From an uncultured Acidimicrobiia bacterium (GTDB lineage Bacteria; Actinomycetota; Acidimicrobiia; Spongiisociales; ZC4RG35), in NCBI GenBank assembly GCA_963744905.1, contig CAVUUV010000002.1, positions 261,382-325,381 of the forward strand: a DNA stretch of 64,000 nt, written 5' to 3'. This document shows positions 1-38,801 of this stretch, one piece after another. Numbering within the stretch: position 1 is the first letter of the stretch; every line of letters starts with the position of its first letter. The notes under the pieces are model-generated. The model was not told where the DNA came from. It worked only from the letters and a program-made list of their open reading frames with translations, and made no database searches. The translations under genes and the position numbers were made by a program.

Positions 1-295
1 GGGACGACAGGAGGATCCTCACCAGGCCGGGCCTGGCCAACAAGACCGAAATTCCCCTCAGCCAACGCTCGAAGGCGAAGATGCGCCAGTTCAGAATCTC
101 TCCCGGGCGGCCCGACGCGAGGCGGGCGGCCAGGGCACCCAGACCCGACCGGGCCGCTACCTCCGGCGTCGACTCCGGTGAGCAAAGCACCGCCACCCCC
201 AGCTCGGACAGAGCAACCTGCAGAGCCCGGGCCACGGTGGACTTCCCCGCCCCCGGGGTTCCCATCAACTCCACCACTATGGGTTCATCGGTCAT
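1..295 (-). CDS. P-loop NTPase / kinase-like protein, N-terminal part (gene continues beyond window start)
   Basis: Minus-strand ATG at 295..293 overlaps the stop of the upstream sulfotransferase (ATGA). Translation MTDEPIVVELMGTPGAGKSTVARAL... contains a Walker A motif GTPGAGKST. Function inferred only from the motif and context. Confidence 0.45.
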   Translation of the reverse strand, partial: MTDEPIVVELMGTPGAGKSTVARALQVALSELGVAVLCSPESTPEVAARSGLGALAARLASGRPGEILNWRIFAFERWLRGISVLLARPGLVRILLSS

Positions 296-1224
296 GGCGA
301 GCGGTAACGGTCCAGAAACGAGAAGTCGGCCGTAGTCTCTGCCATCACCGTCCGGGCCGCCTCGGGCCAGTCCACCCTGTCCGACTCCCCCGGCCGGTCC
401 GCATTCACCAGGGCTGCGCACGCCCTCAGATAGTCCGGGTCGGCTTGCACACCCAGGAAACTGGCGACAGATTCCAAGGTCGGAACGGTTCGGGCCACGA
501 GATCCTCGTAATAGACCGTGGTCAGTCTCGGCTTCAGGAGTGCCCTCAGCATCTCGAGCCGCTCGCACTGCGACCTGTGGTCGTGGGCCGCGTCCACGGG
601 ATCGCGCCCGCTCCTCAAGACCATCGCTGCCACCGAGTCCGCCGGAGCCCGCACCATCTGGACGAACATCACCCGTCTCGGGGCCATTCGCTCGTCGAGT
701 AGGGCGATGCTGGCGGGCGATTCTCCAAGAATCCGCGTGGTCGGCCCCGCCCTGGACACACCTACCACGTGAGGCCGGCCCACACGACCCTGGTCCGATC
801 CCGCGATGGCGAGTGAGTAGCCACCATCGAGCCGTCGGGCTGTCACCCGGCCCTTCATCGCCTCCCGTCGGGACGACCGAGCCAGGACCCCGATAACCTC
901 GTCGGCCGTGAAACCGGCTTCGACCAGGTCCATGACATCCACTTCGTCACCGAACACCACATCAGGGTGGGCATCGAGCATTGCTCCCAGCAAGCTGCCT
1001 CCGCTCTTGGTATGGCCCAGCAGGACACACAGCGTTCCTACCGCCGTGAACCTGCCCGGATCGGCACTGTTGGCGGCCCGGGCCCGCCGCCGGCGTCGCC
1101 AGCGATCGACCGAGGCTACCGGCTCGCTCCGCCGCAATCGGCGCATAGGCTCGCTCTTCAACACCTTCCGGGCCGGCTTCGAGTTGAGGAGCGCCACCCA
1201 GGCCCGCTCCCTGGCGGACGTCAT
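292..1224 (-). CDS. Sulfotransferase family protein (paralog 1 of 4)
   Basis: Track ORF 292..1980 trimmed to the internal ATG at 1224, which overlaps the stop of the ligase gene (tcat = ATGA). Carries PAPS 5'-PSB-like LGHTKSGGSL and a 3'-PB-like region. Similar to Stf0/Sulfotransfer_3-type enzymes. Confidence 0.7.
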   Translation of the reverse strand: MTSARERAWVALLNSKPARKVLKSEPMRRLRRSEPVASVDRWRRRRRARAANSADPGRFTAVGTLCVLLGHTKSGGSLLGAMLDAHPDVVFGDEVDVMDLVEAGFTADEVIGVLARSSRREAMKGRVTARRLDGGYSLAIAGSDQGRVGRPHVVGVSRAGPTTRILGESPASIALLDERMAPRRVMFVQMVRAPADSVAAMVLRSGRDPVDAAHDHRSQCERLEMLRALLKPRLTTVYYEDLVARTVPTLESVASFLGVQADPDYLRACAALVNADRPGESDRVDWPEAARTVMAETTADFSFLDRYRSP

Positions 1225-2669
1225 GACTCCGCTGACATGGAGGACGGTTTCCGTGCCTTGTCCACCCCGCTGAAGGCATTGCCGATCAGTGCCAGACTCA
1301 ACCACCAGACAGCAAGGCCGACGCTGACCACCATGTTCGAGAACGAGCTGACGATGACGTGGCCGAGGATGACGAACCACAGGATGACCACCAGCTTCCT
1401 CCCGTACAGCCCGTTCCCCCGAAGGCGCGACAAGCCCTTGGGCGTCTTGGCCAGCCAGTAAAGGGCGGCCCCGAGGTAGGCGATCAGACCGACCAGTCCC
1501 TGCTCGGCGAGAATGGTAAGGAACAAATTGTGTGATGAGTGATCCTTGGTGGGAACGAACAGGTCTCCCACCCGCGACTGGAACAACGTGTCGTAGCGGT
1601 CGAAGTTGCCATATCCCCAACCGGTGACCGGCTTCTCCTCGAACATCCTCACCGAGGCGATCATCACCGGTAGACGACTGAGGGCGGTCGTCTCGGAGGC
1701 CGGAGAGTAGACCCTCTCCCTCAGATAGCTGGAGAGCCATCCAGAGCTGCCGATGGCGAGAAAGGCGACCACGGCCACCACCCCCGCCACCAGGATCACC
1801 CGGGCCGCATTCCGGTAGGCGAAGAAGACCCCTACCAATACCACGATGGCCGCCAGCCAACTCGCCCGGGAGAAGGTGGCGAAGGCCATCACCACTCCCA
1901 GGGTGAAGCCGGGCAGTCCCCAACGCCGAAGACTTCCCGACAACTGACGCGACAGGTGCAGTACCAGGGCGCCGGCCCACAGGGCCACGATGCCGAAGAC
2001 GTTGGCCTGGTCGAGCGACCCGGTAGTGCGTTCACCTACCCGGCCCAGCAGGCGATCCGGGAGAACCCCGGGGGCAAACCATTGAGCCAACCCGATCAAC
2101 GCCTGCGAGACGAGCACAAACATCAGAATGTAGGTGAACTTGCGCAACTCGGCACGCTTGGGGGGGACAAGGCGAACGAGCAGGTAGAGGATCATGGGGA
2201 CCCCTGCCCGGTCATACAGGTGCCTCAACTCGGCGCCTACGTCGTTGGAGAGGTACAGGATCGAAAGTGCCGTGACGACCAGGTATGCCGCCATCAGCAA
2301 CTCCGCCACGCCCAGCCTGGGCAGGCGGCGATCAGAGGCCCTGGCCATGCTGGAGGCGACCACGACCACCAGGGTGGCCAGTGGCGCCAACCTGTGCACC
2401 AGCCAGTAGGCCAACTTCAGGCTTCCCCCGTCTTCCAGTCCGGACATGAACGGGAGCACCAGCATCCACACACCCACGGTGATCAGTGGATAGCGATGAA
2501 CGACCAGAAACACCGGAACAACCAGCAACACCGCAGCCAACTCGAACCACATTCCACGGCTGACGGCGATGGCCGATACGATCGATCCCACCACCGCTAC
2601 CAGCAGCCACAGGAGTCGACCAGGCCAGCGCCTGATCCAGGGCAGCTGCGGGGCAAGCTCGGCGGTCAC
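1221..2669 (-). CDS. O-antigen ligase / Wzy_C-family polytopic membrane protein
   Basis: 482 aa, about 12 predicted TM helices. Wzy_C-like periplasmic loop motif WGYGNFDRYD...SSHNLFLTILAEQGLVGL. Confidence 0.7.
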   Translation of the reverse strand: MTAELAPQLPWIRRWPGRLLWLLVAVVGSIVSAIAVSRGMWFELAAVLLVVPVFLVVHRYPLITVGVWMLVLPFMSGLEDGGSLKLAYWLVHRLAPLATLVVVVASSMARASDRRLPRLGVAELLMAAYLVVTALSILYLSNDVGAELRHLYDRAGVPMILYLLVRLVPPKRAELRKFTYILMFVLVSQALIGLAQWFAPGVLPDRLLGRVGERTTGSLDQANVFGIVALWAGALVLHLSRQLSGSLRRWGLPGFTLGVVMAFATFSRASWLAAIVVLVGVFFAYRNAARVILVAGVVAVVAFLAIGSSGWLSSYLRERVYSPASETTALSRLPVMIASVRMFEEKPVTGWGYGNFDRYDTLFQSRVGDLFVPTKDHSSHNLFLTILAEQGLVGLIAYLGAALYWLAKTPKGLSRLRGNGLYGRKLVVILWFVILGHVIVSSFSNMVVSVGLAVWWLSLALIGNAFSGVDKARKPSSMSAES

Positions 2670-3670
2670 GTTCCTGTCTCCGAACGAACGAACCTATGGC
2701 TGGGAATCCGGCGTCCGACGCGATCCAGGACCCGATCCCTCACCTCCCACAGGTACATCCTGGCGCCCTCCAGGGGGACCACCACCATCGTGAACCACAA
2801 CCCGGCCAGCCGATTCTGCGAGGGCCGATCCGGCTCGTATCCCAGTCGCTGCATGGGACCGGAGACGGCGCGTTCGATGTAACGAACCTGTCCCTCACTC
2901 AAGACATCCCTAAATCGGCCTATCGAATCGGTGGTTATCGCTCCGGCCCGACGCCGTCCATACGAGCTGTTGCCCGTTTCGTCGAAATCGTCGGCACCCT
3001 GCATTGACAGCATCTCCGCGGTGTAGTCGACCCCGATGAACCCACACACAGTCTTCAAATGCCCTTCGGGGTCGGAAACCAGATCTTCATACCGAACCAG
3101 AAGATAGGAATCCGGCCAACGCACGGTGTTCTTCTCCGCCCGACGGACCGAGAACCGCCATTGCGCCACTCCCACACCGGCGCCGCCTCGCCGGCGCTCC
3201 CACCGCTTCTGCACCGACGCGTAGCGATCGCGGGGATCACGAATCATGTGAATGATCCGTGCCCCCGGGTAGGCTGCCAGGATCTGCTGGGCGTGGCGCT
3301 CCGTCATGAGCGACTTGTCTCCCCACCGGGGCTTTCCCACTCGATCGGCGAATTGGCGTTCCAACAGTTCGAACAGCCGGGGATAGCTAGAAGGCCCCGA
3401 TCGGAAATCTCGTCGCAGACGATCCCAGTCGATGTTCAACTTCACCAGGCGCTTGTAGCGGGACATCACATCGAGGCATCTATCCAGATTGCGATCATGG
3501 GAAAGATCGCCGTAGCGCCGGTAGAAGTACCTCCACAGGTTGGTCCGTCTGGTCATGGCGATCTCGGGATGAGATGAGAGCAGCGCATACATCAAGCTGG
3601 TTCCGGTACGCTCCAATCCGGCCACGAAGACTGGACCGGCCGGCCGCGTGGTTGACGTGCTTTCGGTCAT
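2666..3670 (-). CDS. Sulfotransferase family protein (paralog 2)
   Basis: Start ATG at 3670 overlaps the upstream stop (ATGA). Motifs GLERTGTSLMY (5'-PSB) and IHMIRDPRDRYAS (3'-PB, RDPRD). Confidence 0.75.
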   Translation of the reverse strand: MTESTSTTRPAGPVFVAGLERTGTSLMYALLSSHPEIAMTRRTNLWRYFYRRYGDLSHDRNLDRCLDVMSRYKRLVKLNIDWDRLRRDFRSGPSSYPRLFELLERQFADRVGKPRWGDKSLMTERHAQQILAAYPGARIIHMIRDPRDRYASVQKRWERRRGGAGVGVAQWRFSVRRAEKNTVRWPDSYLLVRYEDLVSDPEGHLKTVCGFIGVDYTAEMLSMQGADDFDETGNSSYGRRRAGAITTDSIGRFRDVLSEGQVRYIERAVSGPMQRLGYEPDRPSQNRLAGLWFTMVVVPLEGARMYLWEVRDRVLDRVGRRIPSHRFVRSETGT

Positions 3671-4530
3671 CGTGCTTGCGCAAACCGCACGCGGGTACGG
3701 AACACCGTTCGGTCGACCAATCCCGAGAGAAACGGCGGCGGGCCGGCCGCCGCCGCGGCATAGCCCAGATCTCTCATCTCTTCTGCAACCAGATCCTCCA
3801 GGACCGGAACGAACCACGCCGGCGGTGGCGACTCCTTGGAATCAGGGGCGATCTCCGGCGACCGTCCACCGGGTTGCGTTTCGAATCCGAGGATGTCGAC
3901 CACTCGGTCCAACACACCCGATGGATCATGGGTCAGCTGCTCCCAAGGCAAGACCCAATACCGGTCTCCGAAGCGATCCTGATTGACGATCGCCAAACGA
4001 GCCGACTGAGCCCAGGTGGCCAGATCCCATCCCCGTCGACCAATCCGCCCGGCGCGGCGGGAGAATCCCAGCAAATGACGGGGATCGCGTATGAGATGCA
4101 CCATACGGGCGTGGGGCAGGTCCGTCAGGAGCGAGGCGGCCAGGCGCTCCAAACCACGCAGCTGAACCACCTTCGCCCGCACCGCATCGACTTCCTGAAT
4201 GGCGGCGAACAACGACCCGTACGACAGCGGAGTGCCGGCGTTATCCAGATCCTCCGCTATGCGGAGGACATCGGCCGACGTCGACCCCACCGACCCGTCC
4301 TTACCCAAAGCGACGGCGCAGAGTGCCAGGTTGGACGGATGGACAAGATCTCCATAGCGTCCGTAATGGCGGGTCCAGAAGTACGCCTTCCGGATCACCT
4401 CGATTCCCGGTGTGCCCGCCAGCAGCCGCCCCAGTTCGGTCTTGCCCGAATGAGCCATGCCCGTGACGAACAGCGGACCGGCCTGCCCTAGATGCCCGAG
4501 ATGATCGCCCGACCTGCTCTCGGGAATCAT
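3667..4530 (-). CDS. Sulfotransferase family protein (paralog 3)
   Basis: Start ATG at 4530 overlaps the upstream stop (ATGA). Motifs GMAHSGKTELG and LIRDPRHLLGF. Confidence 0.65.
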   Translation of the reverse strand: MIPESRSGDHLGHLGQAGPLFVTGMAHSGKTELGRLLAGTPGIEVIRKAYFWTRHYGRYGDLVHPSNLALCAVALGKDGSVGSTSADVLRIAEDLDNAGTPLSYGSLFAAIQEVDAVRAKVVQLRGLERLAASLLTDLPHARMVHLIRDPRHLLGFSRRAGRIGRRGWDLATWAQSARLAIVNQDRFGDRYWVLPWEQLTHDPSGVLDRVVDILGFETQPGGRSPEIAPDSKESPPPAWFVPVLEDLVAEEMRDLGYAAAAAGPPPFLSGLVDRTVFRTRVRFAQAR

Positions 4531-5573
4531 GCCGCAGGCTCCACGATCATTCGCCGGCCTGGCTTCCTTCCCACCAGGCCGGGAAGATGCTGTTGAAGAG
4601 ACTCGGCAACCCTCCACGCCACCATCCGCGCCGTTTGATCCGGCCAGACCCCGAAGATGAACCGCACCCACTGACCGGCACTGAACTGGATGGGGTCCCT
4701 CCGGTAGCCGCGCTCGGCCATACCACGGCCGGCATGAAGGTCGATGAAGGCGCGCTCGAACCCATCGATCCGGTCCCGATGGAGCCCGATGTAGGAATCA
4801 GACAACAATTCGTCGCCGCCGTCTGATGAGAGGAGCCGATCGCGGTGGCGTGGCGCGCCTCGCATTTCGAGCATCTCGGGACGAAAATCCTCCTCCAGGA
4901 ATTCGCACACCGACCGAAGTGTCGCCTCGGTATCACGGATCAAATCCTCAAACCTCACCACCCGGTAACGATCCGGCCACCGCCGCTCGTTGGCCCGGGC
5001 CAGGCGATTGGAGTAATTCCAGCGGGCGACTGCACCCCCCGCCCGGCCTTTGCCGTCGGGCCACAGTGCCAGGGACGCTTCGTAGCGGTCCCTGGGATCA
5101 CGCACCATATGGACCACCCGGAGACCGCCGTAGGAGCGAAACAACTCGGGCGCATACCGCTCTATCAGACCCGTTTGAGCTCCCCACCGAGGCTTGCCTT
5201 CCCGTTCAGCATATTGACGGAGAAAGAGGCCGAACAACTGGGCATAGGTTCTCTCTCCGGCCAGGAAGCGGACGCGGATCTGATCGAAGTCGGGCTTCAA
5301 GAAGACGACGTGCTTGTAGCGACTCATCGCATCGAGGCAGCGGTCCAGATTGCCGTCGTCTCGCAGGTCCCCGTACTGCCGGTAGAAGTAGGTCCACATG
5401 TTCGACCCCACGGCCGGTATGGCGACATTGGGATGGGAGGCGAGAAAAGCGGCCATGGTGGTCTTGCCGCTTCGATCCAGCCCCCCGATGTAGATCGGGT
5501 CGCCCGAACCCGGGCCGACTACCGCCCGGCCGGCCCCCTCGAACAGAGGAGCGGGATCATGCCTCGACGGCAT
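4527..5573 (-). CDS. Sulfotransferase family protein (paralog 4)
   Basis: Motifs GLDRSGKTTMA and VHMVRDPRDRYEAS. Start taken at MPSRHDPAPLF (5573) to minimise overlap with the Wzz-like gene; M at 5621 is an alternative start. Confidence 0.7.
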   Translation of the reverse strand: MPSRHDPAPLFEGAGRAVVGPGSGDPIYIGGLDRSGKTTMAAFLASHPNVAIPAVGSNMWTYFYRQYGDLRDDGNLDRCLDAMSRYKHVVFLKPDFDQIRVRFLAGERTYAQLFGLFLRQYAEREGKPRWGAQTGLIERYAPELFRSYGGLRVVHMVRDPRDRYEASLALWPDGKGRAGGAVARWNYSNRLARANERRWPDRYRVVRFEDLIRDTEATLRSVCEFLEEDFRPEMLEMRGAPRHRDRLLSSDGGDELLSDSYIGLHRDRIDGFERAFIDLHAGRGMAERGYRRDPIQFSAGQWVRFIFGVWPDQTARMVAWRVAESLQQHLPGLVGRKPGRRMIVEPAA

Positions 5574-6573
5574 CGCTGGGCACACTCTCCAATCGATGAG
5601 AGTCGGTCGACGTGTATTCACGCACCTCTATCTCGACGTGAAGGGGCCTGGCCAGCTGCATGGTCTCGATCGAGGCCACCCAGTCTTCGAGCAACCGACG
5701 GCAGGCGTTTCCGTCTACCTCGGGGAAGATGGTCGACAGGGTGCGGGGCTCGGTTGCGCAGAGGACGTCCTGGGGCCGCAAAGCTTCCGACAGGAGGTCG
5801 CCGACGGCACGAATGGTGGCGCCTTCGACCGGTCGATCCTCGTCCTCGAGATCCTCGAGTTTCAATATCCCCACAGAGAAGGTGGATGGCGCCCCGTCGA
5901 GGCGGGCTATCTCTTCTCTCATCCTGAGCTGAAAGTAGTCGGCGTTGAACATCCCCGAGACGGGATCCAGGATCTCGAACGATGTCTTGCGGCCGGCAGC
6001 CCGCGAGAAGTAGTCGACCAGGAATGCCAGGACCCAACCGAGAAGGAAGCCAAACACGGCTCCGATCACGATGGTCAGCGGTTTGTTGGGCCCCGACGGT
6101 GAGTTCGGCGCCTGGGGAGGGTCGAGCGGTTGAAGCTCATAGGCATCGTGGAGAGCATCAACATAGGCGACGGTCTCGGCGCCGATTGCCTGTGCGAAGG
6201 CGAATGACTTGTCGGGATCGGTGCTCTCGACCGAGATCCGGATCATGTTGGTCCCAGTGACCACATCAGAGTTGACCCGTATCCCGCCCTTGGACTGTCC
6301 GACCTGTTCGGCGGCTCGGTCACGTACCAGATCACTGCGGGCTATGGCGGCATAAGTCGAGTTGATCTCGACACCTCTGTTCAGGGTGTTGAATGCCTGT
6401 ACGATCTCGTCGGCGGTCGAGGCGCGGGGACGGACGATGAGGGTGCCCCCGGACTGGTATACCCAGGGCTGTTGAGCCACGAAGGCGATGGTCAAGCCCA
6501 GGGTGAGCGAGAAGCACACCGCCACCAGGATCCAGTGATCCCGCAGGATCTTCAGGTACCGACGAATTTCCAT
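5557..6573 (-). CDS. Wzz/polysaccharide co-polymerase-like protein with C-terminal degenerate GGDEF-like cytoplasmic domain
   Basis: N-terminal YLKILRDHWILVAVCFSLTLGL (Wzz TM1), periplasmic segment, then second TM LTIVIGAVFGFLLGWVLAFLV. The C-terminal ~130 aa align with the GGDEF fold (DPVSGMFNADYF..., SVGILKLEDL, ...CATEPRTLSTIFP in place of RYGGEEF). Confidence 0.6.
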   Translation of the reverse strand: MEIRRYLKILRDHWILVAVCFSLTLGLTIAFVAQQPWVYQSGGTLIVRPRASTADEIVQAFNTLNRGVEINSTYAAIARSDLVRDRAAEQVGQSKGGIRVNSDVVTGTNMIRISVESTDPDKSFAFAQAIGAETVAYVDALHDAYELQPLDPPQAPNSPSGPNKPLTIVIGAVFGFLLGWVLAFLVDYFSRAAGRKTSFEILDPVSGMFNADYFQLRMREEIARLDGAPSTFSVGILKLEDLEDEDRPVEGATIRAVGDLLSEALRPQDVLCATEPRTLSTIFPEVDGNACRRLLEDWVASIETMQLARPLHVEIEVREYTSTDSHRLESVPSDAVEA

Positions 6574-6574
6574 T

Positions 6575-7816
6575 TCAGATACTCCCCTGATAGAACTTGC
6601 CGACTGCCATGGCTACTCGTGCGAGAGCCTCAACCGGCATCTCCGGATACATCGGAAGGGAGAGAATCCTCTGCGCCCCTTCCTCCGTCACCGGAAACGC
6701 CCCCCTCCGATAACCCAGCTCCCGGTGGGCCTCCTGAAGATGTACGGGCAGCGGATAGTGGATTCCCGTTGCCACCCGGTTCCGGCTCAGGTGCTCGATG
6801 AGCGCCTCCCGATCGTCCACCTCGACCACGAATAGATGGTATACGTGTTCGATCGCCGAGAACTCCGTCGGCAACTGAACGGGAAAGGCCGTCAACAGAT
6901 CTCGGTACACGGCGGCTGCCAATCGCCGGGAGGCGTTGGCTTCGTCGAGCCGGATGAGCTTGACCCGGAGAACGGCCGCCTGCAATGTGTCGAGGCGCCG
7001 GTTGAAACCCTTGACAGTGTGGTGGTATTTCACCTCCGACCCCAGGTTCCGCAGTAATCGGATCCGCCGAGCCAACCCGGCGTCGCTGGTCACCACCATC
7101 CCTCCGTCACCAAAGCCACCCAGGTTCTTGCTGGGATAGAAACTGAAGGCGGCAGCATCTCCCAGTGATCCGGCTCGCACGCCCTGGTGCCGTGCGCCGT
7201 GCGCCTGGCATGCATCCTCGATCAACGCCAGACCGTGCCGATGGGCGATCTCCGCCAGCCGACCCATGTCGGCCGGGCGCCCGTAGAGATGGACGGCGAT
7301 GACGGCCGCGGTCGATGGAGTTATCGCCGCTTCGACCTGTTCCGGATCCAGGTCGTAGGTAATTGGATCCACGTCTACCAGCACCGGCCGGGCACCGACC
7401 GCATCTATTGCGTTCACCGTGGCGATGAAGGTGTTGGCCGCGGTGATCACCTCGTCACCCGGGCCGATCCCCATTCCTCGCAGTATCAATTCCAGAGCCG
7501 AGAAGCCCGAGTCGACACCGATGCCGAACCCCGCCTCACAGAACGCGGCGAACTCGGACTCGAAGCGCGCCACCGCCTCCCCGAGCACGAAGTCACCCTT
7601 TTCGAGAACTGCCGCCATGGCCGCGTCGATCGCAGACTTAGATCGCTGGTATTCACCACGGAGGTCTACGAATGGCACCTCACGTTGTGGCTCCACCCGC
7701 AGCCCGGGCTGGTCTCTGGTTCGTAGGTCGATGACGATGCCGTCTGTCTCCTCCTCGTCTTCGGGGACGAGGAGGAGAAGTCCTTCGCCATCCATCTCCG
7801 GTTCCAACGCTGTCAT
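6575..7816 (-). CDS. DegT/DnrJ/EryC1/StrS-family PLP-dependent sugar aminotransferase
   Basis: Motifs ALIEDACQAHGA and FSFYPSKNLGGFGDGGMVVTSD (PLP lysine). N-terminal ~50 aa may be an over-extension. Confidence 0.85.
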   Translation of the reverse strand: MTALEPEMDGEGLLLLVPEDEEETDGIVIDLRTRDQPGLRVEPQREVPFVDLRGEYQRSKSAIDAAMAAVLEKGDFVLGEAVARFESEFAAFCEAGFGIGVDSGFSALELILRGMGIGPGDEVITAANTFIATVNAIDAVGARPVLVDVDPITYDLDPEQVEAAITPSTAAVIAVHLYGRPADMGRLAEIAHRHGLALIEDACQAHGARHQGVRAGSLGDAAAFSFYPSKNLGGFGDGGMVVTSDAGLARRIRLLRNLGSEVKYHHTVKGFNRRLDTLQAAVLRVKLIRLDEANASRRLAAAVYRDLLTAFPVQLPTEFSAIEHVYHLFVVEVDDREALIEHLSRNRVATGIHYPLPVHLQEAHRELGYRRGAFPVTEEGAQRILSLPMYPEMPVEALARVAMAVGKFYQGSI

Positions 7817-7825
7817 GACCGCCTC

Positions 7826-8899
7826 CTATCGAGCCGCTTGGCCGCTGGTTGATTCGACCAGATCCCGAGCCGACATGGTGTTCACGTCCATCGGGGCGCC
7901 GCTGTCAGCCAGCGACTTCTGTGCGGCCTCGATGACCTGCACGACTCTCAGGCCGGAAGCGCCATCGGAAGTCGGCGCTTTCCCGGTACGAATCGATTCG
8001 ATGAACTGGCGGCATTCGACTCGAAGCGGTTCCTCGAAATGAATGTGTGGGCTGACCACACTTCCATAGTGGTAGGCGAATTGGAAGTCTCCATAGGTGT
8101 CCGTCCGGCGGATGGTGGTCACGCGTTTGTCGAATATGCGCAGCTTCTCCATCGGTTCCACATCGTCATAGACCACCATCTTCTCGGAACCGACCACGGT
8201 TATGCGCCGCGTCTTCAGAGGATCCAGCCAACTCATCCTCGTATTGGCAGTCATGCCGTTGGGATAGTTGAGGGTGAGATAAGCCACATCCGCCACGTCC
8301 TCGTGCACACAGGCCGCACCTCTGGCAGACACGTCGGAGGGCATCGTCCCGGTCAGATAGTTCAGGATCGAGATGTCGTGGGGAGCCAGATCCCAGATGA
8401 CATTGAGGGTGGGATGAAACAAGCCGAGGCCGACGCGCACACCATCGATGTAGAGGATTCGGCCCAGCTCCCCGCTGTCGATGATTCCCTTGAGGTCCCT
8501 CACCGCCTGGTTGTACTCGAAAGTGTGACCCACCATCAGGATTCTGTCGGCGTGCTCGGCCTTGATCGCAAGATCGGCCGCGGTCGTGGCGGACACGGTC
8601 AGTGGCTTCTCCACCAGCACGTGATGTCCCGACATGAGGAAGTCGGAGGCGATGGCGTGGTGGGTCTCGGGAGGCGTGCAGATTGCCACCGCGTCCAGAT
8701 CCAGTTCTAGGAGTTCCCGATAGTCGGTCGTGAAGACATCCACGGTCCGATAGCGCTCCGCCACCCGCTCGAGCAGGTTGCGGTTGAGATCGGCGATTCC
8801 GACCAGGTCGACATCCGGCATCTCCCAGAAATTGCGAATGATGTTCGGGCCCCAGTAGCCGCTACCTACGACGGCTGCCCGTACGCGTTGGCTTGTCAA
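7826..8899 (-). CDS. Gfo/Idh/MocA-family NAD(P)-dependent sugar dehydrogenase (WbpB-like)
   Basis: N-terminal Rossmann AAVVGSGYWGPNIIRNF and a Gfo/Idh/MocA C-terminal domain. TTG start at 8899 overlaps the upstream stop (TTGA). Confidence 0.8.
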   Translation of the reverse strand: MTSQRVRAAVVGSGYWGPNIIRNFWEMPDVDLVGIADLNRNLLERVAERYRTVDVFTTDYRELLELDLDAVAICTPPETHHAIASDFLMSGHHVLVEKPLTVSATTAADLAIKAEHADRILMVGHTFEYNQAVRDLKGIIDSGELGRILYIDGVRVGLGLFHPTLNVIWDLAPHDISILNYLTGTMPSDVSARGAACVHEDVADVAYLTLNYPNGMTANTRMSWLDPLKTRRITVVGSEKMVVYDDVEPMEKLRIFDKRVTTIRRTDTYGDFQFAYHYGSVVSPHIHFEEPLRVECRQFIESIRTGKAPTSDGASGLRVVQVIEAAQKSLADSGAPMDVNTMSARDLVESTSGQAAR

Positions 8900-9585
8900 C
8901 CCGCTCCCTCCCCTGCAAATACGGCCGGAAGAGTGAGGAACACAATCCGGAGATCGAACACGAGGCTCTGTCGAGCGATATATTCCAGATCGAGATCGAT
9001 CATCTCTTCAAATGGAGTGGTGGCCCTGCCCCTTATCTGCCACCAGCCGGTCAGACCCTGGGGGGTGGCGAACCGGCGCATGTGGCGCTCCCCGTACAGA
9101 GGAACCTCATAGTCGATGGGCGGCCGGGGCCCAACCAGGCTCATGTCTCCGCGAACCACATTCCACAGCTGGGGAAGCTCATCCAGACTGAAAGCCCTGA
9201 GAAACCGTCCGACACGGGTGATCCGGCTGTCTCGTCCCAGCTTGTACGACCCCTCTGTCCGCATCGATTCGGCGGCCGAGACCGTTACGTCGTCACCCTG
9301 GATGTAGGCAGCGATGTATTCGCGATGGACCGACTGGTCGGCTTGCCACCGCATGGTCCGGAACTTGTAGAGCGTGAAGGGTCGGACCCCCCACGCATCG
9401 GCCCTCCGCGTCAGAGGCCGAGACCCGATCCGCGTCTGGCGAAAGAACACCGGACCGGGACTGTCTAGCCGTATCAATAGGGCCACAACCGCCAATACCG
9501 GCAGGGCCAAGACAAGCAAGATCGACCCGACGCCGATATCGAATCCGCGCTTGGCCAGGTAATAACCCGAGGAACGGTCACCCAT
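8896..9585 (-). CDS. Bacterial sugar transferase (undecaprenyl-phosphate sugar phosphotransferase, PglC/WbaP C-domain type)
   Basis: Motifs [10 protein letters not shown]...LYKFRTMR...[21 protein letters not shown]. Start placed at [16 protein letters not shown] (9585); the track ORF extends to 9684. Confidence 0.8.
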
Positions 9586-9996
9586 GCGGGGAACGCGGAT
9601 ATCTCTCCAGTCGTGCGAGATGGTCACGAGTGACCACCCGCGCCGTGTTCGCCCCCACGTCCTGCAACCCAATCCCCGCGCCAAGAGCGCACGAGGTAAG
9701 CGTCGACCCCAACTCCCAATTCAAGCCTCCCGTTTACAGCGTCCCTGCGGTCGCTTTCTGCCCACCTGCAGGATACCGGGAGTTCACGGAAAGTGAAGGA
9801 CCTAGGGACCCATTGTCGGGAGAGTTGTACCGCCATCGGGGGAGTCGAAGCGGCAAGCGACCGTCGTCGCACCATCCACCCGGTCGGTTTGGCAAGAGGT
9901 GGGGCTCCGACCGTTCAAAGATCTCGGTCATCCGGTGCAAGAGAAACCCTCTCTTCCCGGATCCCGACCCTCCCCGCTCACGAGGCGGGGAGGGTC

Positions 9997-10072
9997 TGGT
10001 AGCCCCGACCGGATTCGAACCGGCGTTACCGGCTTGAGAGGCCGGCGTCCTGGGCCACTAGACGACGGGGCC
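9997..10072 (-). tRNA. tRNA-Glu (anticodon CUC)
   Basis: Minus-strand sequence GGCCCCGTCGTCTAGTGG...CCGGC-CTCTCAA-GCCGG...GGTTCGAATCC...TCGGGGCTACCA. Cloverleaf folds by hand with U33 and A37; CCA is encoded. Confidence 0.85.
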
Positions 10073-10101
10073 AAAGGAAGGCCTCGAATTCGGGGGCCTT
10101 C

Positions 10102-10173
10102 GCTCGGGGGGAAGGACTCGAACCCTCAACGACAGGACCAGAACCTGCTGTGTTACCAATTACACCACCCCCG
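10102..10173 (-). tRNA. tRNA-Gln (anticodon CUG)
   Basis: Minus-strand TCGGGGG-TG-GTGT-AATTGGTA-ACAC-A-GCAGG-TTCTGGT-CCTGT-CGTT-GAGGG-TTCGAGT-CCTTC-CCCCCGA-G. All stems pair; 72 nt; CCA not encoded. Confidence 0.8.
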
Positions 10174-10409
10174 AACGCGACTCGGATAGGACGAGCGCGG
10201 GGAGATGGGCAGTCTAGCGCCCCGCTGTCGGTCCCGTCACACCGACCATCCCCGACCGAACCCCGCTACACGCAACCGACGGGGGGAGGCCCCAACCAGA
10301 ATGAACCACCCGAGTGGCCGATCGGCGCCGTGATCGGGAGCGCCTGATCAGGGCATGAATCGCCCAACCATCAACAGGTCGAGGTCGATACTCCGCGAGG
10401 GGATCTCAC

Positions 10410-13400
10410 TCAGGGATGAGACCTGAAGTAGAAATCGTCGATCCAGAGACTGTCGATCACAGGCTCGAACTTGGAGCTGTCGGCGTCGGTTGCTCGGACC
10501 AGAACCGTCCCCGACACCCCGGTCGGCAGGTCGAACGTCTGGTAGGTGCCGTCGTCGGTGGTCTTCGTCACCCGCATCATGTCCAGCCAGGATGACCCGC
10601 CGTCGGTCGAATACGAGAACTGGAAATCCTCCGCTCCGGAGTGGTGAGCCTGGAGGAAGAAGGTGACTGTGCTGCCACCCGTGACCGAGAATGTCCATTG
10701 CTGCTCCAGACGAGTCCTCTTCCCGCCTCCATAGGCTTCCTCGCTGATGACGAGATAATCACCGTCGTCGGCGAAGGTGCTTGAGAGATCGCCGGCAACC
10801 ACCGATCCGTAGACGGTGGTCTGGGAGGAGGCATCGTCATCGGTGGCTACCTGGTCGTTGTCCACGATGATCACACTGGCATCGGAGGGAAAGCCGATCT
10901 GGTAGTTGGCATCAGTGCTCAAAGTGATGACCACCGATTCGTTTCCCTCCGCAGCGGTGTCGTCAACCGCTGCCACCGGAACGAGAGCCGTCGACTGACC
11001 TGCCCCGAGAGTCATCGAACCCGACAAAGGCCCATAGTCGTCACCGGGGGTAGCCGTGCCGGAAACGGTGTAGAAGACGGTCAGATCGGCGGAAACGTCA
11101 TTGCGGGAGATCGTGAACCCGCCATCGGCTCCGCCCTCGTAGGCGAAAGGCCCGGTTGCGTCGACCGACACCTCCGGAAGAGGGGGCTGGGGGTTCACCG
11201 TCTTTATCGCCATGTAGTCAACGAAGAGCGTATCGGTCGACCCGTTGCCGATGGTGCGGTCGGAGTCGATGGCTCGCACGATGACCGTTCCGCTGATCGT
11301 GGGTGGCAGATCGGCCCGATAAGTGGTGTCGGAGCCGGCCGACACCACCACCAACGGTTCGAAACTCACGCCACCATCGGTCGAATACGAGAACTCGAAG
11401 TCGTCACCCTCCGAGTTGGCGGTGCGTCGGGCTTCGAGCACGAAGTTGATGCTGTCCCCGCGCTCGACGTCGAAGGTCCAGCGATGCTCGAGCCTGCTCA
11501 CCCTGCGATTGCGTGGACCACCGGTCTGCTCCTCGGTTAGTTGCTCATACACATCGTCGGTGGCGGTGGTATCTGCCAGGCTCCCGCTCACCGAGCCGAG
11601 CAGGGTCTGCTCGGATCCGGCAAACTGGTCGAGAGTGGTCTCTCCGATGGAGACCGTGACGGTGGCGACGTTCGACAAATCGGTCCCATCCGAGGCCTGA
11701 TAGGTGAAACTGTCCGAGCCGGAGAACCCGGCCGTCGGGGTGTAAGTAACCGTCCCGTCCGTCTCCAACGTCACCGACCCGTTGGCCGGCGTCGACAGAT
11801 TCGTCACCGACAACACATCCCCATCCGGATCACTGTCATTGGCCAACACATCCACATTCACCGGCTGACCCTTGGTAGTAGAAGCCGAATCGTCCACCGC
11901 CACCGGAGCCCGATTGGCAACCGTCACCGACACCGTCGCCACATTCGACAAATCGGTCCCATCGGACGCCTGATAGGTGAAACTGTCCGAGCCGGAGAAC
12001 CCGGCCGTCGGGGTGTAAGTAACCGTCCCGTCCGTCTCCACCGTCACCGACCCGTTGGCCGGCGTCGACAGATTCGTCACCGACAACACATCCCCATCCG
12101 GATCACTGTCATTGGCCAACACATCCACATTCACCGGCTGACCCTTGGTAGTAGAAGCCGAATCGTCCACCGCCACCGGAGCCTGATTGGCGACCGTCAC
12201 CGACACCGTCGCCAGGTTGGAGGGGTTGTTCCCGTCCGATGCCTGGTAGGTGAAGGTATCCACCCCGGAGAATCCCCCCGCCGGCGTATACGTCACGGTC
12301 TCATCCACCTCCACCACCACCGAGCCATTGGAAGGGGCGGAGGCGATCTGGACCGTCAAGGGATCACTTTCAGGATCCGTGTCGTTGGCCAACACATCCA
12401 CATTGACCGGCTGACCCTTGGTAGTAGAAGCCGAATCGTCCGCCGCCACCGGAGCCTGATTGGCGACCGTCACCGACACCGTCGCCACATTCGACAAATC
12501 GAGTCCCATCCGAAGCCTGATACGTGAAACTGTCCGAACCGGAGAACCCGGCCGTCGGGGTGTAAGTAACCGTCCCGTCCGTCTCCACCGTCACCGACCC
12601 GTTGGCCGGCGTCGACAGATTCGTCACCGACAACACATCCCCATCCGGATCACTGTCATTGGCCAACACATCCACATTCACCGGCTGACCCTTGGTGGTA
12701 GAAGCCGAATCATCCACCGCCACCGGAGCCTGATTGGCAACCGTCACCGACACCGTCGCCACATTCGACAAATCGGTCCCATCCGACGCCTGATAGGTGA
12801 AACTGTCCGAGCCGGAGAACCCGGCCGTCGGGGTGTAAGTAACCGTCCCGTCCGTCTCCACCGTCACCGACCCGTTGGCCGGCGTCGACAGATTCGTCAC
12901 CGACAACACGTCCCCATCCGCATCATTGTCATTGGCCAACACATCCACATTCACCGGCTGACCCTTGGTGGTAGAAGCCGAATCGTCCACCGCCACCGGA
13001 GCCTGATTAGGGGCCGGATCCACCGTAATCGTCACCGTGGCCGTGTCAGAAGCCACACCGTCAGAGGCGTCATAGGTGAACGAATCCACACCCGAGAACC
13101 CGGCATCAGGCGTATAGGTCACCGTCCTGTCCGTCTTCACCGTCACCGACCCGTTGGCCGGAGTCGACAGATTCGTCACCGACAACACGTCCCCATCCGG
13201 ATCACTGTCATTGGCCAGCACATCCACATTCACCGGCTGACCCTCGGGGGTCGACGCTGTGTCATCGACCGCCACCGGAGCCCGATTGGCAACCGTCACC
13301 GACACCGTCGCCACATTCGACACATCGGTCCCATCCGACGCCTGATACGTGAAGGTATCCACACCCGAGAACCCCGACCCTGGCGTGTAAGTCACCGTCC

Positions 13401-16400
13401 CGTCCGTCTCCACCGTCACCGACCCGTTGGCCGGCGTCGACAAATTCGTCACCGACAACACATCCCCATCCGGATCACTGTCGTTGGCCAACACATCCAC
13501 ATTCACCGGTTGACCGGCATCCGTCGACGTACTGTCGTCGACCGCCACCGGGGCCTGATTGGCAACCGTCACCGACACCGTCGCCACATTCGACAAATCG
13601 GTCCCATCCGAGGCCTGATAGGTGAAACTGTCCGAGCCGGAGAACCCGGCCGTCGGGGTGTAAGTAACCGTCCCGTCCGTCTCCACCGTCACCGACCCGT
13701 TGACCGGCGTCGACAGATTCGTCACCGACAACGCATCCCCATCCGGATCACTGTCATTGGCCAACACATCCACATTCACCGGCTGACCCTTGGTAGTAGA
13801 AGCCGAATCGTCCACCGCCACCGGAGCCTGATTGGCGACCGTCACCGACACCGTCGCCACATTCGACAAATCGGTCCCATCGGACGCCTGATAGGTGAAA
13901 CTGAATCCGAGCCGGAGAACCCGGCCGTCGGGGTGTAAGTAACCGTCCCGTCCGTCTCCAACGTCACCGAACCGTTGGCCGGCGTCGACAGATTCGTCAC
14001 CGACAACACATCCCCATCCGGATCACTGTCATTGGCCAACACATCCACATTCACCGGCTGACCCTTGGTAGTAGAAGCCGAATCGTCCACCGCCACCGGA
14101 GCCTGATTGGCAACCGTCACCGACACCGTCGCCACATTCGACAAATCGGTCCCATCCGAGGCCTGATAGGTGAAACTGTCCGAGCCGGAGAACCCGGCCG
14201 TCGGGGTGTAAGTAACCGTCCCGTCCGTCTCCACCGTCACCGACCCGTTGGCCGGCGTCGACAGATTCGTCACCGACAACACATCCCCATCCGGATCGCT
14301 GTCGTTGGCCAACACATCCACATTGACCGGCTGACCCTTGGTAGTAGAAGCCGAATCGTCCACCGCCACCGGAGCCTGATTGGCGGTGCCCGCGGTGACG
14401 GTCACGTTGAAGCTGGTTGAGTCGGTGAGGGCGACGGGCTTGGGCGTCAGGGCGACCGTGAAGGCGTTACGCGTATTCTCGCCGGTGCTGGCCGACCCGC
14501 TGGCGACCGCAGTCCCCACCGGTCCGGCAGTGGATTGGACCTGGTCACCCGCCAGGACACGGTTCTTCCCGGTTCCTGAACTACCCACTTGTTCCGACCA
14601 CCGTTCGGTTACCCCGGTGGGCACGGTATTGAATCCCACGCCGGGATCAGTGGCGCTCGCCCCTCTCCAACCCCACAGACGCAATACCCGGGCGTTGTCG
14701 ACCGTCGTGTTCAAGTCGGGGGCTTCGAGGGTCGCTATGTCCTCGGCCGAGGCAGCCCAGGCGTCGATGGGGTTCTCGGGGTCCACACCCACGTATGCCC
14801 CGATTCCTCCAGCCATACGGCCTTCGGCGTATCCCTGATCGAAGCTGTACGAAGTGGGTTCGGATGAACCGGCGATCTTGTAATAGACGCTCTGGTGGCC
14901 GTTGGAGGTGCTGGGAATCGTGGCCAGCTCGGTCCATCCAGCCGGCGGGGTCATGGATGGGAGGTCGCCCCGGTAGCGCACCTGCGCCAGCAACAGATCA
15001 CCGGCCTGGACCCCGTCCGGTTTGGGGATCGTAAGCACCGAGCCCGAGGTGCTGGTGTCGATAGCCGACGCCGCAGACCGGAAAGCCGGCGCACCGGCGT
15101 CGGTCGACGCTCCGTCGGCGACCGTCACGGTCACAGGCCCATACGTTCCCGCGTCTCCCACTGTCGGGGAGAAGGTCATCTCCAAGGTGGCGGCGTCGAA
15201 CGAGCCGAACGAGGGAAGCCCATCGACGGTGACCGTCAGCGGGTCACCGTCAGGGTCGGAGGCCGAGACCGCCACCACGGCAGTCTCGCCCTCTGCCACT
15301 GTGACGTCACTGATCGGATCGACCGTTGGGGGAGAGTTGGGTGGCCCGTTGACGGTCACGATCACGTCGTCCGAGCCAGACAGCTCTCCGTCAGAGGCGG
15401 TCAGCTCCAGGGTATAAGTGCCTTCCGTGTCGAAGCTGGCCGTGGTAGAGGCGGAATTGGGGTCTGCGAACGTGACCTGACCGGGGCCGGTCACCATGGA
15501 CCAGGTTTGGGTGACCGAACCCGAAGGCAGCCCGTCATCCGTAACAGAACCGGACAGAGTCACATCCGACGGTAGGGTGATGGTCTGGTCGGGCCCGGCG
15601 TCGACGACCGGCGCCAGGTTGCCGGGGGGATCGGCGAGATTGGGGGCCGAAAGCTCGAACACCTTGCCGTCGTTCTCGTTCGAATTGGCTCCATTGTCGA
15701 CCGCCCGGTCGGCGATCCACAGATCCATCCCCGAGCTGTTGGTGGCGGGGGCAAGACCCAGGCCGGAAACGTGGGTCATGGCCGACACACTGATGTTGAT
15801 CGTGCGAATCAAGGTCCCGTCGAGGCCGATCTCAAACACCTTGTGCACACTGCTGACCGGATTCCGGGCACCCACATAGAGCGACCCGCGCGAGGGGGCG
15901 GCCACCAGTCCCTCCCAGTCCGTCGGTCCCAGTCCGGAGATGTCGAAATGGGAAACCGAGTCGTTTCCGTTGCCGAATATCCCGTCAGTCGGGTCGACCC
16001 GGTAGATCTCGCTGTCCACCCCGCTGAGAATGAACAGGTCACCGGTGGCCGTGTCGAAGGTGGGATCTTCGGTATCGCTGGCATTGAAAGGCGGCCCGCC
16101 GGTGTCGATGAACGACACCGCATCATCGCCGGTTCCGAAGGCTCCATCCCCTCCGGGGCGAATCACGAACACGCCCTGAGCGCTGTCGTCTGACACGAAC
16201 AGGGTGTTGGACCCGGGGTCGTAACCGACGCCGGTTGGTTCCTTGGAGAAACCGACAGAGCCTCCGAAGGTGGCCGCGGTTGGGCCCCAGAAGGTGCCTG
16301 TGCCCACCACGGTGCCGGTCCTCAGCGCCCGCCACATGTTCACGTTGTGCCAACCCGCACCGGTCGTCTCGTCCACCTCGGAGTCCACCACGACGAGTTG

Positions 16401-17378
16401 GTCCACCCCCGGCAACCACGTCACTCCCGAGGGGTCGGGTGCCGCCGGGTCCCAGGCCGAAGTGTCGATCGTCTGGACCAGCGTGGCGTAGTCCTCTGTC
16501 GCAGTCACTGCGGCCACCTGAACCAGGGAGACCTCCGTTATCCCACCGAGGGAAGTGGCTGTCCCTGAGTCCGCGACGTAGAGGTTCTGGATCGAGGGGG
16601 CATCGGTCGAGTCCGTGCTGGGGGCAAACGTCATGTCCTCGGGCGACATCAGACCCACCGAGGAAAGGTCGTAGGAGACCGCCACCTCTCCATTCGAGTC
16701 GAGCCCGTCGAGACGGTTGCCGTCGCTCGACAAGACGTACAGCCGATCATCTGACGGATTGAAGGCGATCTGGCCCGCATCGACTCCGCTCGGCAGGGCG
16801 AGCGAGCCGGATTGGAGGCCGGTGGACAAATCTGTGACCACAACGTCATGACCACTTGCGGACAGCGAATACAGCACCCCGCTATCAGGATCCACCGTCC
16901 GGCCGATCGCCGAGACGCTGCCGGACTCCGGGATGATTTGAACCGCCGGGGTCCTCGATTCCAGGTCGCTCCCTTGCATCACCACGGCGTCCCGATCCCC
17001 GAACAGAAGCAGTTCATCCTCAATCGGGTCGAAAGCTGCCGTTTCCAGTGCCGAGATAGCCGCCACTACTGAGGTTCCGATCAGCTTGGAGCGCCGATCG
17101 AGTCGAACCAGCGCCGTCTCATTGCCCTTTCGCCCTCCGACGACGAATTGACTGCGCGATGGGTCATATGCCAGGGCAGTGGGACGAGCGATACCGACTT
17201 CGTCCGTCCAGACGGTGCGTACGAGCCGGCCGATCAGGGGAGTTGAAATCTGCCCGGCCGCCTCAGTGCGGGCGGATGACGTGGCGCCGACAGCCAGGGC
17301 TGCTTGCGACGGCATGAGACTGAACAACATGCCCATGAGCGCGACGATGACAACAAAACGCCGCCCAGAAGAACCCAA
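10410..17378 (-). CDS. Giant secreted repeat/adhesin-like protein (PKD + ~10 cadherin-like 95-aa repeats + Calx-beta + duplicated C-terminal domain), interrupted by two compensating frameshifts
   Basis: Three track ORFs (13842..17552, 12370..13869, 10410..12509) encode contiguous, homologous repeat sequence. ORFs 1 and 3 share a frame and ORF 2 is offset. Candidate TTG start at ~17378 sits 6 nt after GGAGG and is followed by a signal-peptide-like GSSGRRFVVIVALMGMLFSLMPSQAALA. A PKD-like segment GPDQTITLPSDVTLSGSV...TYTLELTASDG and a Calx-beta-like segment DYGPLSGSMTLGAGQSTALVPVAAVDDTAAEGNESVVITL are present. Confidence 0.6.
11650..14430 (-). repeat. Tandem ~285-bp (95-codon) near-identical coding repeats (cadherin-like VANQAPVAVDDSASTTKGQPVNVDVLANDSDPDGD... 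units), ~10 copies
   Basis: Directly visible as near-identical DNA periodicity; inter-copy identity mostly >90%. Confidence 0.85.
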
Positions 17379-17609
17379 AATCCAGCCTCCCACCGACTGC
17401 CCGTCTCTCGATCCTGACGGACGATAACACCCGACGCCCCCCGGGCAATGGTCTCCGGGACCCATCCTCGAGGGGATCAGGCGGAACCTCGGAGCGAGGA
17501 TCGGCCGAGCGCCGGTCGCCAAGCTGTCGGAGCGGCGGCGGGTGGCCGGCACGCCCGGGGCCAGCCCGCCTCGGGACGGGGTAATCCCCTCTCCTCCACC
17601 CGCGTAGCT

Positions 17610-17978: not shown

Positions 17979-18088
17979 CACACGTTGGACGAGCCCTGCT
18001 GCTGTCGGGTTCCCCTGTTCGGGACCTGGCGACTGGAGCGTGTCGAACCGCCACAGTTTGGGTAGATACGACAAATCAGGAGGTGACT

Positions 18089-38791: not shown

Positions 38792-38801
38792 GCGAGAGGA
38801 A

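Follow-up and report, generated by a model that had tools for sequence, protein, structure and literature searches.

The window analysed here, a stretch of 64,000 nt from an uncultured Acidimicrobiia bacterium (GenBank assembly GCA_963744905.1, contig CAVUUV010000002.1, positions 261,382 to 325,381 of the forward strand), carries on its minus strand a gene for a giant secreted repeat protein, which lies beside a polysaccharide cluster containing several open reading frames (ORFs) with sulfotransferase domains. The protein consists, in order, of a signal peptide, two beta-propeller-like modules (together the head), a PKD domain, a single Big_9 domain, an unnamed middle domain, ten cadherin-like repeats and a C-terminal cassette in which a Calx-beta domain is flanked by two copies of a second unnamed domain. 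An earlier sequence-only reading of the same DNA had this order right but overlooked the single Big_9 domain and the middle domain of ~220 aa (14418-15095). We read the product as a large secreted fibrillar multidomain repeat protein of a known, fibrillar-adhesin-like kind, and the evidence for this, together with the alternatives, is set out below.

The region 10410-17552 had been taken as a single giant gene. As it stands, the minus strand there contains three ORFs, 17552-13842 (1236 aa), 13869-12370 (499 aa) and 12509-10410 (699 aa). ORFs 1 and 3 share a common frame, which is broken by two frameshifts within the repeat array. Because insertions of two bases and of one base split the frame, the single giant gene is a reconstruction and not the literal coding content. 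The two insertions together add 3 nt, so that the original frame is restored after the second, and deletion of these 3 nt gives a single uninterrupted frame of 2,379 codons counted from 17552. The plot of third-codon-position G+C (GC3) by frame was noisy over the window and showed only a 2 to 0 to 2 change of phase within this gene. GTG 17552 is the first possible start of the ORF and the additional 58 residues that it would provide have no signal-like character. The true start is likely to be TTG 17378, which has a GGGAGG Shine-Dalgarno sequence 7 nt upstream and is also the start of the gene call in the source assembly (P0035; 1,178 aa, 100% identical), which ends at the stop of the first frameshift. 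The reconstructed precursor from this start is 2,321 aa long and the mature protein is 2,292 aa (233 kDa, pI 4.05) with 243 Asp and 0 Cys residues.

A signal peptide had been predicted and by inspection one is present, with a basic n-region, a hydrophobic core of ~15 residues (hydropathy up to 2.97 in an 11-residue window) and an A-L-A cleavage motif of the A-x-A type, provided that translation begins at TTG 17378 or GTG 17393; it is lost if GTG 17552, the start originally proposed, is used. The N-termini of homologues are likewise signal-like. A Tat signal was considered and rejected as GRRFVV fits the S/T-R-R-x-F-L-K pattern only loosely. At the other end the protein finishes with ...DDFYFRSHP, with neither a sortase motif nor a hydrophobic tail, and no sortase-type motif was found in the last 60 aa; the candidate LPTGV near the C-terminus was discarded as it falls within a conserved beta-strand of the C-terminal domain and has no hydrophobic tail after it. 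The Pfam scan of the protein gave no SLH, LysM or S-layer family match, SLH matches (faint or true) being confined to some paralogues and relatives. The suggestion that the protein is S-layer-associated is thus not borne out, as it lacks SLH domains, a sortase signal and any other known anchor.

The two frameshifts are, in our judgement, probably artefacts of consensus or assembly, and as they would most probably be consensus errors in a near-identical array the cell itself most likely carries an intact gene. At frameshift 1 the sequence is a hybrid that combines two synonymous forms of an Asp-Ser-Phe-Thr site: most units read GAC AGT TTC ACC, unit 4 of the window and the last unit of a conspecific metagenome-assembled genome (MAG) read GAT TCG TTC ACx, and unit 1 of the window reads GAT TC followed by AGT TTC ACC, which is the pattern expected if reads of both variants were merged column by column and is typical of a mixed-read consensus. 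That conspecific MAG (L015; GCA_049579045.1, JBAUNC010000026.1) is colinear with positions 1171-22299 of the window at 99.1-99.5% DNA identity and carries one intact ORF of 1,577 aa (P0295, MGA7269599.1) that corresponds to the window protein shortened by exactly 8 repeat units. Over the 18.4 kb compared outside the array, the two differ by 88 substitutions and a single indel, and there is no frameshifting indel. The single indel is an in-frame 3 nt (GCG) at 3754-3756, in the overlap of the sulfotransferase ORFs 2666-3817 and 3667-4671. The homologue on a long Flye-style contig (L001; ERZ25039549 contig_17637, 2.19 Mb) changes frame at least 12 times, but only in its repeat array (7393-10000), while its N-terminal part of 1,601 aa and its C-terminal part of 564 aa are clean. 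These changes of frame may reflect a systematic long-read consensus problem in near-identical tandem repeats.

If the frameshifts were real, the gene would have been inactivated in this strain, either as a pseudogene or because the strain has given up a surface protein that is costly or targeted by phages, and the product would be one of 1,178 aa comprising the head, the PKD and Ig domains, the middle domain and ~1.7 repeats. We regard this as rather unlikely, but several observations do speak for it and against an artefact. Both indels are in the sequence as given, which therefore encodes the truncated product; neither lies within a homopolymer; no second variant was found that would make frameshift 2 a hybrid as well; and the array of L015, whose two units combine variants from different window units, may itself be a collapsed assembly. 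Moreover, the orthologue at L002 (6371-11638; JGI 3300076801, Ga0645780_05548) is frameshifted along its whole length, including the head, the PKD domain and the middle domain, while its neighbours and an adjacent paralogue of 1,352 aa (11991-16049) are intact, and it looks like a genuine pseudogene beside a functional paralogue, that is, like real decay in the family. It should also be noted that many natural family members stop directly after the middle domain, and the truncated product could therefore fold. On the other hand, the gene in the window has two lesions only, with no stop codons in the intervening 1.37 kb of the corrected frame, and the conspecific copy and the hybrid character of frameshift 1 described above both favour an artefact. 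Classical phase variation was rejected since neither indel is within a homopolymer or simple repeat.

The beta-propeller-like character proposed for the N-terminal region is upheld. The head occupies ~560 aa and is made up of two homologous, six-bladed-propeller-like modules of ~280 aa (hhalign probability 99.1%, E 8e-19). A profile made from ten family members matched the YWTD six-bladed propellers of LRP6 (6e-9) and Escherichia coli YjiK (3qqz, 1.2e-3), whereas a single-sequence search of the PDB with the head gave no match, so that the family profile was needed. The Pfam family SdiA-regulated (PF06977) remained below its cut-off on the head itself (16.4-17.4 bits vs 21), and given the profile matches we take the kinship with YjiK and SdiA-regulated proteins to be one of fold and not of family membership. 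Among ten homologues, six matched SdiA-regulated (E <= 0.1), four matched NHL and two matched SGL. The most conserved motifs of the head family (DSEVDETTGAGWHNVN, DTEDP and ENDGK) are in module 2, and many acidic residues of the head are invariant. At least 87 proteins have this head in common while their C-termini vary; CBM96, CBM_4_9, LTD, He_PIG and SLH domains are among the latter.

The PKD and Calx-beta domains that had been predicted were both recovered by Pfam well above cut-off (Table 1). The protein was said to contain about ten near-identical repeats of 95 aa; there are indeed ten tandem units, which lie between the middle domain and the C-terminal cassette, but the unit is 91 aa and not 95. 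Tandem Repeats Finder gave a period of 273 bp and 9.9 copies (11671-14384). The units start at 14384, 14111, 13836, 13563, 13290, 13011, 12738, 12464, 12191 and 11918, and all are 273 bp long except unit 1 (275), unit 4 (279, in frame) and unit 6 (274). In the identity matrix, seven units are 93-99% identical in DNA, whereas units 3, 4 and 7 are 73-87% identical to the other seven and 67-78% identical among themselves, which indicates that the array arose by recent amplification around a few units of greater age. Domain searches placed the repeats, as predicted, with Ig- and cadherin-like families, all above cut-off: Big_9 (2.8e-58, 195 bits vs 23.6), Cadherin_5 (1.1e-45, 154 vs 26.5), Cadherin_4 (4.1e-39, 133 vs 25.1) and the NCBIfam 'tandem-95 repeat' NF012211 (134.9 bits, cut-off 90). 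Motifs of Ca2+-binding type are present throughout, LAND[STN]D in all ten units and VDD[ST] in nine. A literature search for the term 'tandem-95 repeat' returned nothing specific.

The middle domain (aa 820-1045) has no Pfam match, and a sequence-profile search of the PDB gave nothing significant. AlphaFold2 (AF2) gave a confident model (pLDDT 88.6, pTM 0.88) in which the domain is all-beta; Foldseek found no solved relative in the PDB (best E 0.1, TM-score (TM) <= 0.27). Against predicted phage proteins (BFVD) the same model gave TM 0.7-0.8 with E down to 1.5e-12; among the proteins matched are a minor tail protein of a mycobacteriophage and a tail-associated phosphodiesterase of a Microbacterium phage. 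Similarity is also detectable in sequence, as tblastn found minor tail proteins of Rhodococcus, Gordonia and Rhizobium phages (E down to 3e-9) and, of 16 family members, 12 match phrog_3329 and eight match phrog_13624. Phage minor tail proteins typically recognize cell-surface glycans. The domain of the giant protein differs from these tail proteins of actinobacteriophages and Rhizobium phages in being inside a cellular secreted protein, and the function of the phage domain is itself uncharacterized. In many cellular relatives the middle domain is the C-terminal domain. A scan of metagenome contigs with it returned one locus.

The duplication of the C-terminal domain, also predicted, is real: two copies of ~140 aa, 40% identical, lie one on each side of the Calx-beta domain, and both contain a conserved FSYSTDGGxSW/F motif, which is an Asp-box. 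The sequence-only reading had further suggested that this domain has no name and may be a novel glycan-binding module, to be followed up by structure prediction. The AF2 model of copy 2 is a beta-sandwich or jelly-roll (pLDDT 96.1, pTM 0.90) that Foldseek matched in the PDB to CBM61, CBM32, CBM4, CBM6, CBM16, CBM29, MAM and the hyaluronan-binding module CBM70 (CBM, carbohydrate-binding module), and such a fold is compatible with the suggestion. A sequence-profile search of the PDB gave nothing significant, and neither Pfam nor NCBIfam has a model for the domain or one that reaches its cut-off on the window protein: Reelin_subrepeat-B (PF21471) scored 26.8 bits vs 27 for the cassette (15.5 for copy 2 by itself), and NCBIfam choice-of-anchor J (NF038128) 21.2 bits vs 30. 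Among 26 aligned copies of the domain there were weak Pfam matches to F5/8 type C (PF00754, 8/26, best E 0.005), Reelin subrepeat B (6/26) and BNR/Asp-box (2/26).

The C-terminal domain is at the same time far from rare. An exhaustive profile search of clusters at 50% identity found 2,618 cluster representatives at E <= 1e-3 (~2,600 clusters) and 914 at E <= 1e-30, often with two copies. In 54 sampled carriers it occurs together with Calx-beta (13), fn3 (12), F5/8C (8), Big_9 (7), beta-helix (3) and CBM96 (2) domains, and these carriers include a chondroitinase B, a GH5 enzyme, two GDSL lipases and two trypsins; a metallophosphatase and an alkaline phosphatase are further carriers, and the domain is also joined to cadherin-like repeats. 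Judged from the model, it belongs to the galactose-binding-like / CBM jelly-roll superfamily, as a common accessory module that has no name, so that 'novel' is true of its family label but not of its fold. Its model superposes on CBM61, CBM32/F5-8 type C, CBM4, CBM6, CBM16, MAM and Reelin subrepeat B at TM 0.55-0.59; it shares the Asp-box with reelin subrepeats and its use as an accessory module on secreted enzymes with the CBMs. It differs from these named families in that identity is <=18% and no model reaches cut-off, and glycan binding by it is a prediction.

Table 1. Features of the giant gene and of its neighbourhood (window coordinates)
Feature	Position	Strand	Evidence
Whole gene, reconstructed	10410..17378	-	TTG start at 17378 to stop codon 10410-10412; 3 inserted bases removed
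Sec-type signal peptide, MGSSGRRFVVIVALMGMLFSLMPSQAALA followed after cleavage by VG (then ATSS)	17292..17378	-	Read by eye from sequence, with hydropathy profile
Beta-propeller-like module 1 (YjiK / SdiA-regulated / YWTD-like)	16524..17243	-	hhalign, profile search
Beta-propeller-like module 2, homologous to module 1	15645..16499	-	hhalign, conservation
PKD domain, K319L-like	15351..15599	-	Pfam PF22352 7.7e-15, 55.1 bits vs 27; PF18911 35.6 vs 27
Single Big_9 bacterial Ig-like domain	15102..15338	-	Pfam PF17963 1e-06, 29.9 bits vs 23.6
Middle domain, all-beta, ~220 aa, unnamed	14418..15095	-	AF2 model, Foldseek, phrog, tblastn
Ten cadherin-like / Big_9 / 'tandem-95' repeats, 273-bp units encoding 91-93 aa	11646..14384	-	Tandem Repeats Finder, unit alignment, Pfam, NCBIfam
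Frameshift 1, insertion of two bases into unit 1 (CTCGGA, extra TT, CAGTTTCACC)	13904..13905	-	Unit alignment; sister units read CTCGGACAGTTTCACC
Frameshift 2, insertion of one base into unit 6 (GATGGGAC, extra T, CGATTTG)	12502	-	Unit alignment; sister units read GATGGGACCGATTTG
C-terminal domain copy 1, CBM-like beta-jelly-roll, Asp-box FSYSTDGGVSF	11202..11621	-	Copy alignment, family analysis
Calx-beta domain	10854..11192	-	Pfam PF03160 1.2e-11, 45.1 bits vs 27
C-terminal domain copy 2, CBM-like beta-jelly-roll, Asp-box FSYSTDGGSSW	10413..10844	-	AF2, Foldseek
tRNA-Glu(CTC) and tRNA-Gln(CTG), 236 nt downstream of stop, between gene and glycan cluster	9997..10174	-	ARAGORN, Rfam
Polysaccharide cluster, downstream of and on same strand as giant gene	292..9684	-	Pfam
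Bac_transf	8896-9684	-	Pfam
GFO/MocA oxidoreductase	7826-8899	-	Pfam
DegT aminotransferase	6575-7816	-	Pfam
Wzz-like ORF, weak match	5557-6573	-	Pfam
Four sulfotransferase-domain ORFs	within 292-1980, 2666-3817, 3667-4671, 4527-5621	-	Pfam
Wzy_C	1221-2669	-	Pfam

A link between the giant protein and the neighbouring genes for a sulfated glycan had been suggested, and comparison of loci supports it. The closest relatives of the protein are in MAGs of Acidimicrobiia, Acidimicrobiales and Ilumatobacteraceae. Two orthologues, P0037 (1,428 aa) and P0039 (1,440 aa, GCA_035544575.1), are intact and have an identical domain order but a single cadherin-like repeat. At three loci (L003, L004 and L005) the orthologue lies directly downstream of Wzx, five sulfotransferase, Wzy, APH-like kinase and GT4 genes; the matching cluster spans are 1-9929 in L003, 1-9801 in L004 and 10480-18883 in the conspecific L015. 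The cluster is shared by Acidimicrobiia lineages whose orthologues of the giant protein are about 50% identical (48-51%), and tblastn detected homologues of the sulfotransferases and of Wzy at 30-55% identity in L003, L004 and L005. The L001 homologue has Bac_transf and GT4 genes upstream. A shorter relative (L014), which ends at the middle domain and is 68% identical there, also adjoins a sulfotransferase gene (tblastn). Within the cluster of the window, the ORFs 292-1980 and 1221-2669 overlap by ~760 nt in different frames, and GC3 phase suggests that the real genes are ~292-1200 (sulfotransferase) and 1221-2669 (Wzy_C); because of this overlap and phase the 562-aa ORF 292-1980 is probably over-extended at its 5' end. 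Directly upstream of the giant gene there is a small ORF with a CarboxypepD_reg domain (17610-18074, minus strand), which is kept in L015 (4388-4690).

The cassette itself has a wider distribution. Salsipaludibacter albus P0200 (2,369 aa) has the C-terminal cassette in common with the window protein and is otherwise a different, intact giant protein, and a scan of genome contigs with the cassette found distant carriers in Planctomycetota, KSB1, Bryobacterales and an archaeon. As no sulfotransferase homologue was found by tblastn within 10 kb of eight distant cassette-only loci (L006-L013), whereas L014 has one, the synteny follows the whole protein or its N-terminal part and not the cassette. 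The linkage accordingly belongs to this Acidimicrobiia protein family, and perhaps to the part formed by the head and the middle domain.

Of the large Ca2+-dependent adhesin that had been proposed, the size, the secretion, the Ca2+-type repeats and the Calx-beta domain are all found; whether such a protein serves as an adhesin, a glycan-tethered matrix protein, an enzyme or a substrate for glycosylation is something that we can only infer. The explanation that we favour, to which as a whole we give about an even chance, is that the protein is a very acidic fibril of ~2,300 aa without cysteine that is exported by Sec and would be retained on the envelope or in the matrix non-covalently, through domains that resemble glycan-binding ones, namely those of the C-terminal cassette and perhaps also the middle domain. 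Their ligand would most likely be the sulfated polysaccharide of the Wzx/Wzy type made by the adjacent cluster. The rod of ten Ca2+-stiffened repeats would project the propeller head outwards to a ligand or surface, and the number of repeats (one in the orthologues, ten here) would set the reach. Two of the results given above tell against a glycan-tethered fibril: the absence of sulfotransferase homologues from the eight distant cassette-only loci, and the weakness of the likeness of copy 2 to CBMs, even its best PDB matches being at TM 0.55-0.59 and <=18% identity. A more specific version, in which this is a dedicated tether or matrix protein of a sulfated extracellular polysaccharide (EPS) in Acidimicrobiia, the jelly-roll pair and the middle domain are new families that bind sulfated or envelope glycans and serve as a non-covalent anchor for fibrillar adhesins that have no other, and phages of actinobacteria use the same middle domain to recognize such glycans, is speculative and we think it unlikely to hold in full.

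The protein could instead be a secreted polysaccharide-processing enzyme, with a catalytic double-propeller head (lyase, hydrolase or esterase) that acts on the neighbouring sulfated polysaccharide and with the Ig-, cadherin- and CBM-like modules as spacers and substrate-binding domains, analogous to the hydrolases and lyases of other EPS operons. This alternative, improbable as we judge it, has real weight, since a constant head of 560 aa in at least 87 proteins with variable, CBM-bearing C-termini is a layout typical of carbohydrate-active enzymes, and since the sulfotransferase synteny extends to the L014 relative, which is without the C-terminal cassette. There are also weak Pfam matches to propeller families that include enzymes (SGL/gluconolactonase, arylesterase and phytase-like), and the head has the many invariant acidic residues mentioned above. 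However, no characterized lyase or hydrolase family reached threshold, and among solved structures the nearest to the head are YWTD propellers and YjiK, none of which is known to be an enzyme. The YWTD propellers of LRP6 are ligand-binding modules. A rod of ten units is, furthermore, commoner in adhesins than in enzymes.

It is considerably less probable that the protein is a substrate for glycosylation, that is, an S-layer-like or other surface glycoprotein to which the Wzy_C-family protein encoded at 1221-2669 would transfer the sulfated glycan as an O-oligosaccharyltransferase. The synteny is conserved, Ser and Thr are abundant in the protein, and the Wzy_C domain is also a domain of O-oligosaccharyltransferases (O-OTases) and of ligases, but the weak Wzz-like ORF and the Wzx genes of the orthologous loci fit an ordinary Wzx/Wzy polymer pathway and Pfam found no SLH domain or S-layer family. 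Finally, the reading of the region as three separate genes of 1236, 499 and 699 aa, which follows the ORF listing and the fragments annotated by the source gene caller (P0035 and P0296), is effectively refuted by the unit alignment, the merged frame and the intact ORF of L015, as ORFs 2 and 3 start in mid-repeat without a signal peptide, ORFs 1 and 2 each finish in out-of-frame junk, the breaks are insertions of 1-2 nt relative to sister units, and the conspecific and orthologous genes are single ORFs.

As a fibrillar-adhesin-like protein it has both familiar and unusual parts. The ten units together with the PKD and Big_9 domains form a stalk of tandem repeats such as is found in fibrillar-adhesin-like proteins, including tandem-95 proteins, of which the Gram-positive members usually have a non-repeat head at the N-terminus (PMC8286594). 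Nearly half of such proteins are without a known anchor (Monzon et al., 2021, PMC8286594). Unlike typical fibrillar adhesins, the window protein has no known anchor (LPxTG, SLH or LysM) and no known adhesive domain was found by the Pfam scan; it has instead a double beta-propeller head and a CBM-like / Calx-beta / CBM-like cassette at the C-terminus. The head, the middle domain and the CBM-like domains are its candidate binding parts. The giant RTX (repeats-in-toxin) adhesins of type I secretion systems (LapA, BapA, SiiE and MpIBP) resemble it in being very large, in their tandem Ig-like Ca2+-binding repeats and in having ligand-binding modules at one end. It differs from these in its N-terminal Sec signal and its actinobacterial host lineage, there was no Pfam HemolysinCabind match that would indicate RTX repeats, and the BapA/LapF C-terminal model NF045619 scored 29 bits vs a cut-off of 180. 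CdrA of Pseudomonas aeruginosa is a two-partner-secretion beta-helix protein of a Gram-negative host. It offers a functional analogy only, as a large secreted fibrillar protein whose role in cell-cell interaction is, according to the abstract of a preprint (bioRxiv 10.64898/2026.07.13.738186), exopolysaccharide-dependent, the glycan binding of the present protein being predicted. The unusual features of the window protein are its head, its unnamed C-terminal cassette and the ten-fold expansion of the repeat compared with the single-repeat orthologues.

Elsewhere in the window, the strand opposite to the giant gene carries an ABC-2 transporter pair (19230-21742). Tad/Flp pilus genes are present in two places, 23680-27843 and 37049-40034: the first includes, at 23680-26722, two TadB-/TadC-like T2SSF proteins and a TadA-like ATPase, and the second has four pseudopilin genes, three of them TadE-like and one TadG-like. 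It is in this second place that G+C is lowest in the window (0.575 at 38-40 kb), and the GC3 signal there is weak. An ORF for the bacterial proteasome activator Bpa is found at 29363-30112 (PF10759, 4.8e-43) and speaks for an actinobacterial origin of the window. A haloarchaeal origin, to which the name of one hit had pointed, was rejected in view of the Bpa and Tad genes and of the closest relatives, which are Acidimicrobiia.

For annotation, the three ORFs of this region should be read as one gene, and where frameshifts in long contigs are confined to near-identical tandem arrays a consensus error should be suspected before a pseudogene is called. The protein itself is a member of a large, uncharacterized actinobacterial family with a double-propeller head, and it brings to light two domain families for which Pfam and NCBIfam have no model, one very widespread and the other shared with phage minor tail proteins. 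As regards the neighbouring cluster, its combination of genes resembles that for Synechan (xss) of Synechocystis, in which Wzx/Wzy-type genes likewise occur with several sulfotransferases (PMC8205485), although the present host belongs to a different phylum. A literature search on Acidimicrobiia sulfotransferase clusters returned nothing specific. As, according to the abstract of PMC8205485, cyanobacteria are the only bacteria with sulfated EPS, the neighbouring cluster is the more notable of the two, and a sulfated polymer in Acidimicrobiia would, if real, be notable in its own right, a point that belongs to the cluster and not to the giant protein. For the protein, the glycan-cluster neighbourhood provides a concrete candidate for how a fibrillar protein that has no recognizable anchor may stay on the cell.

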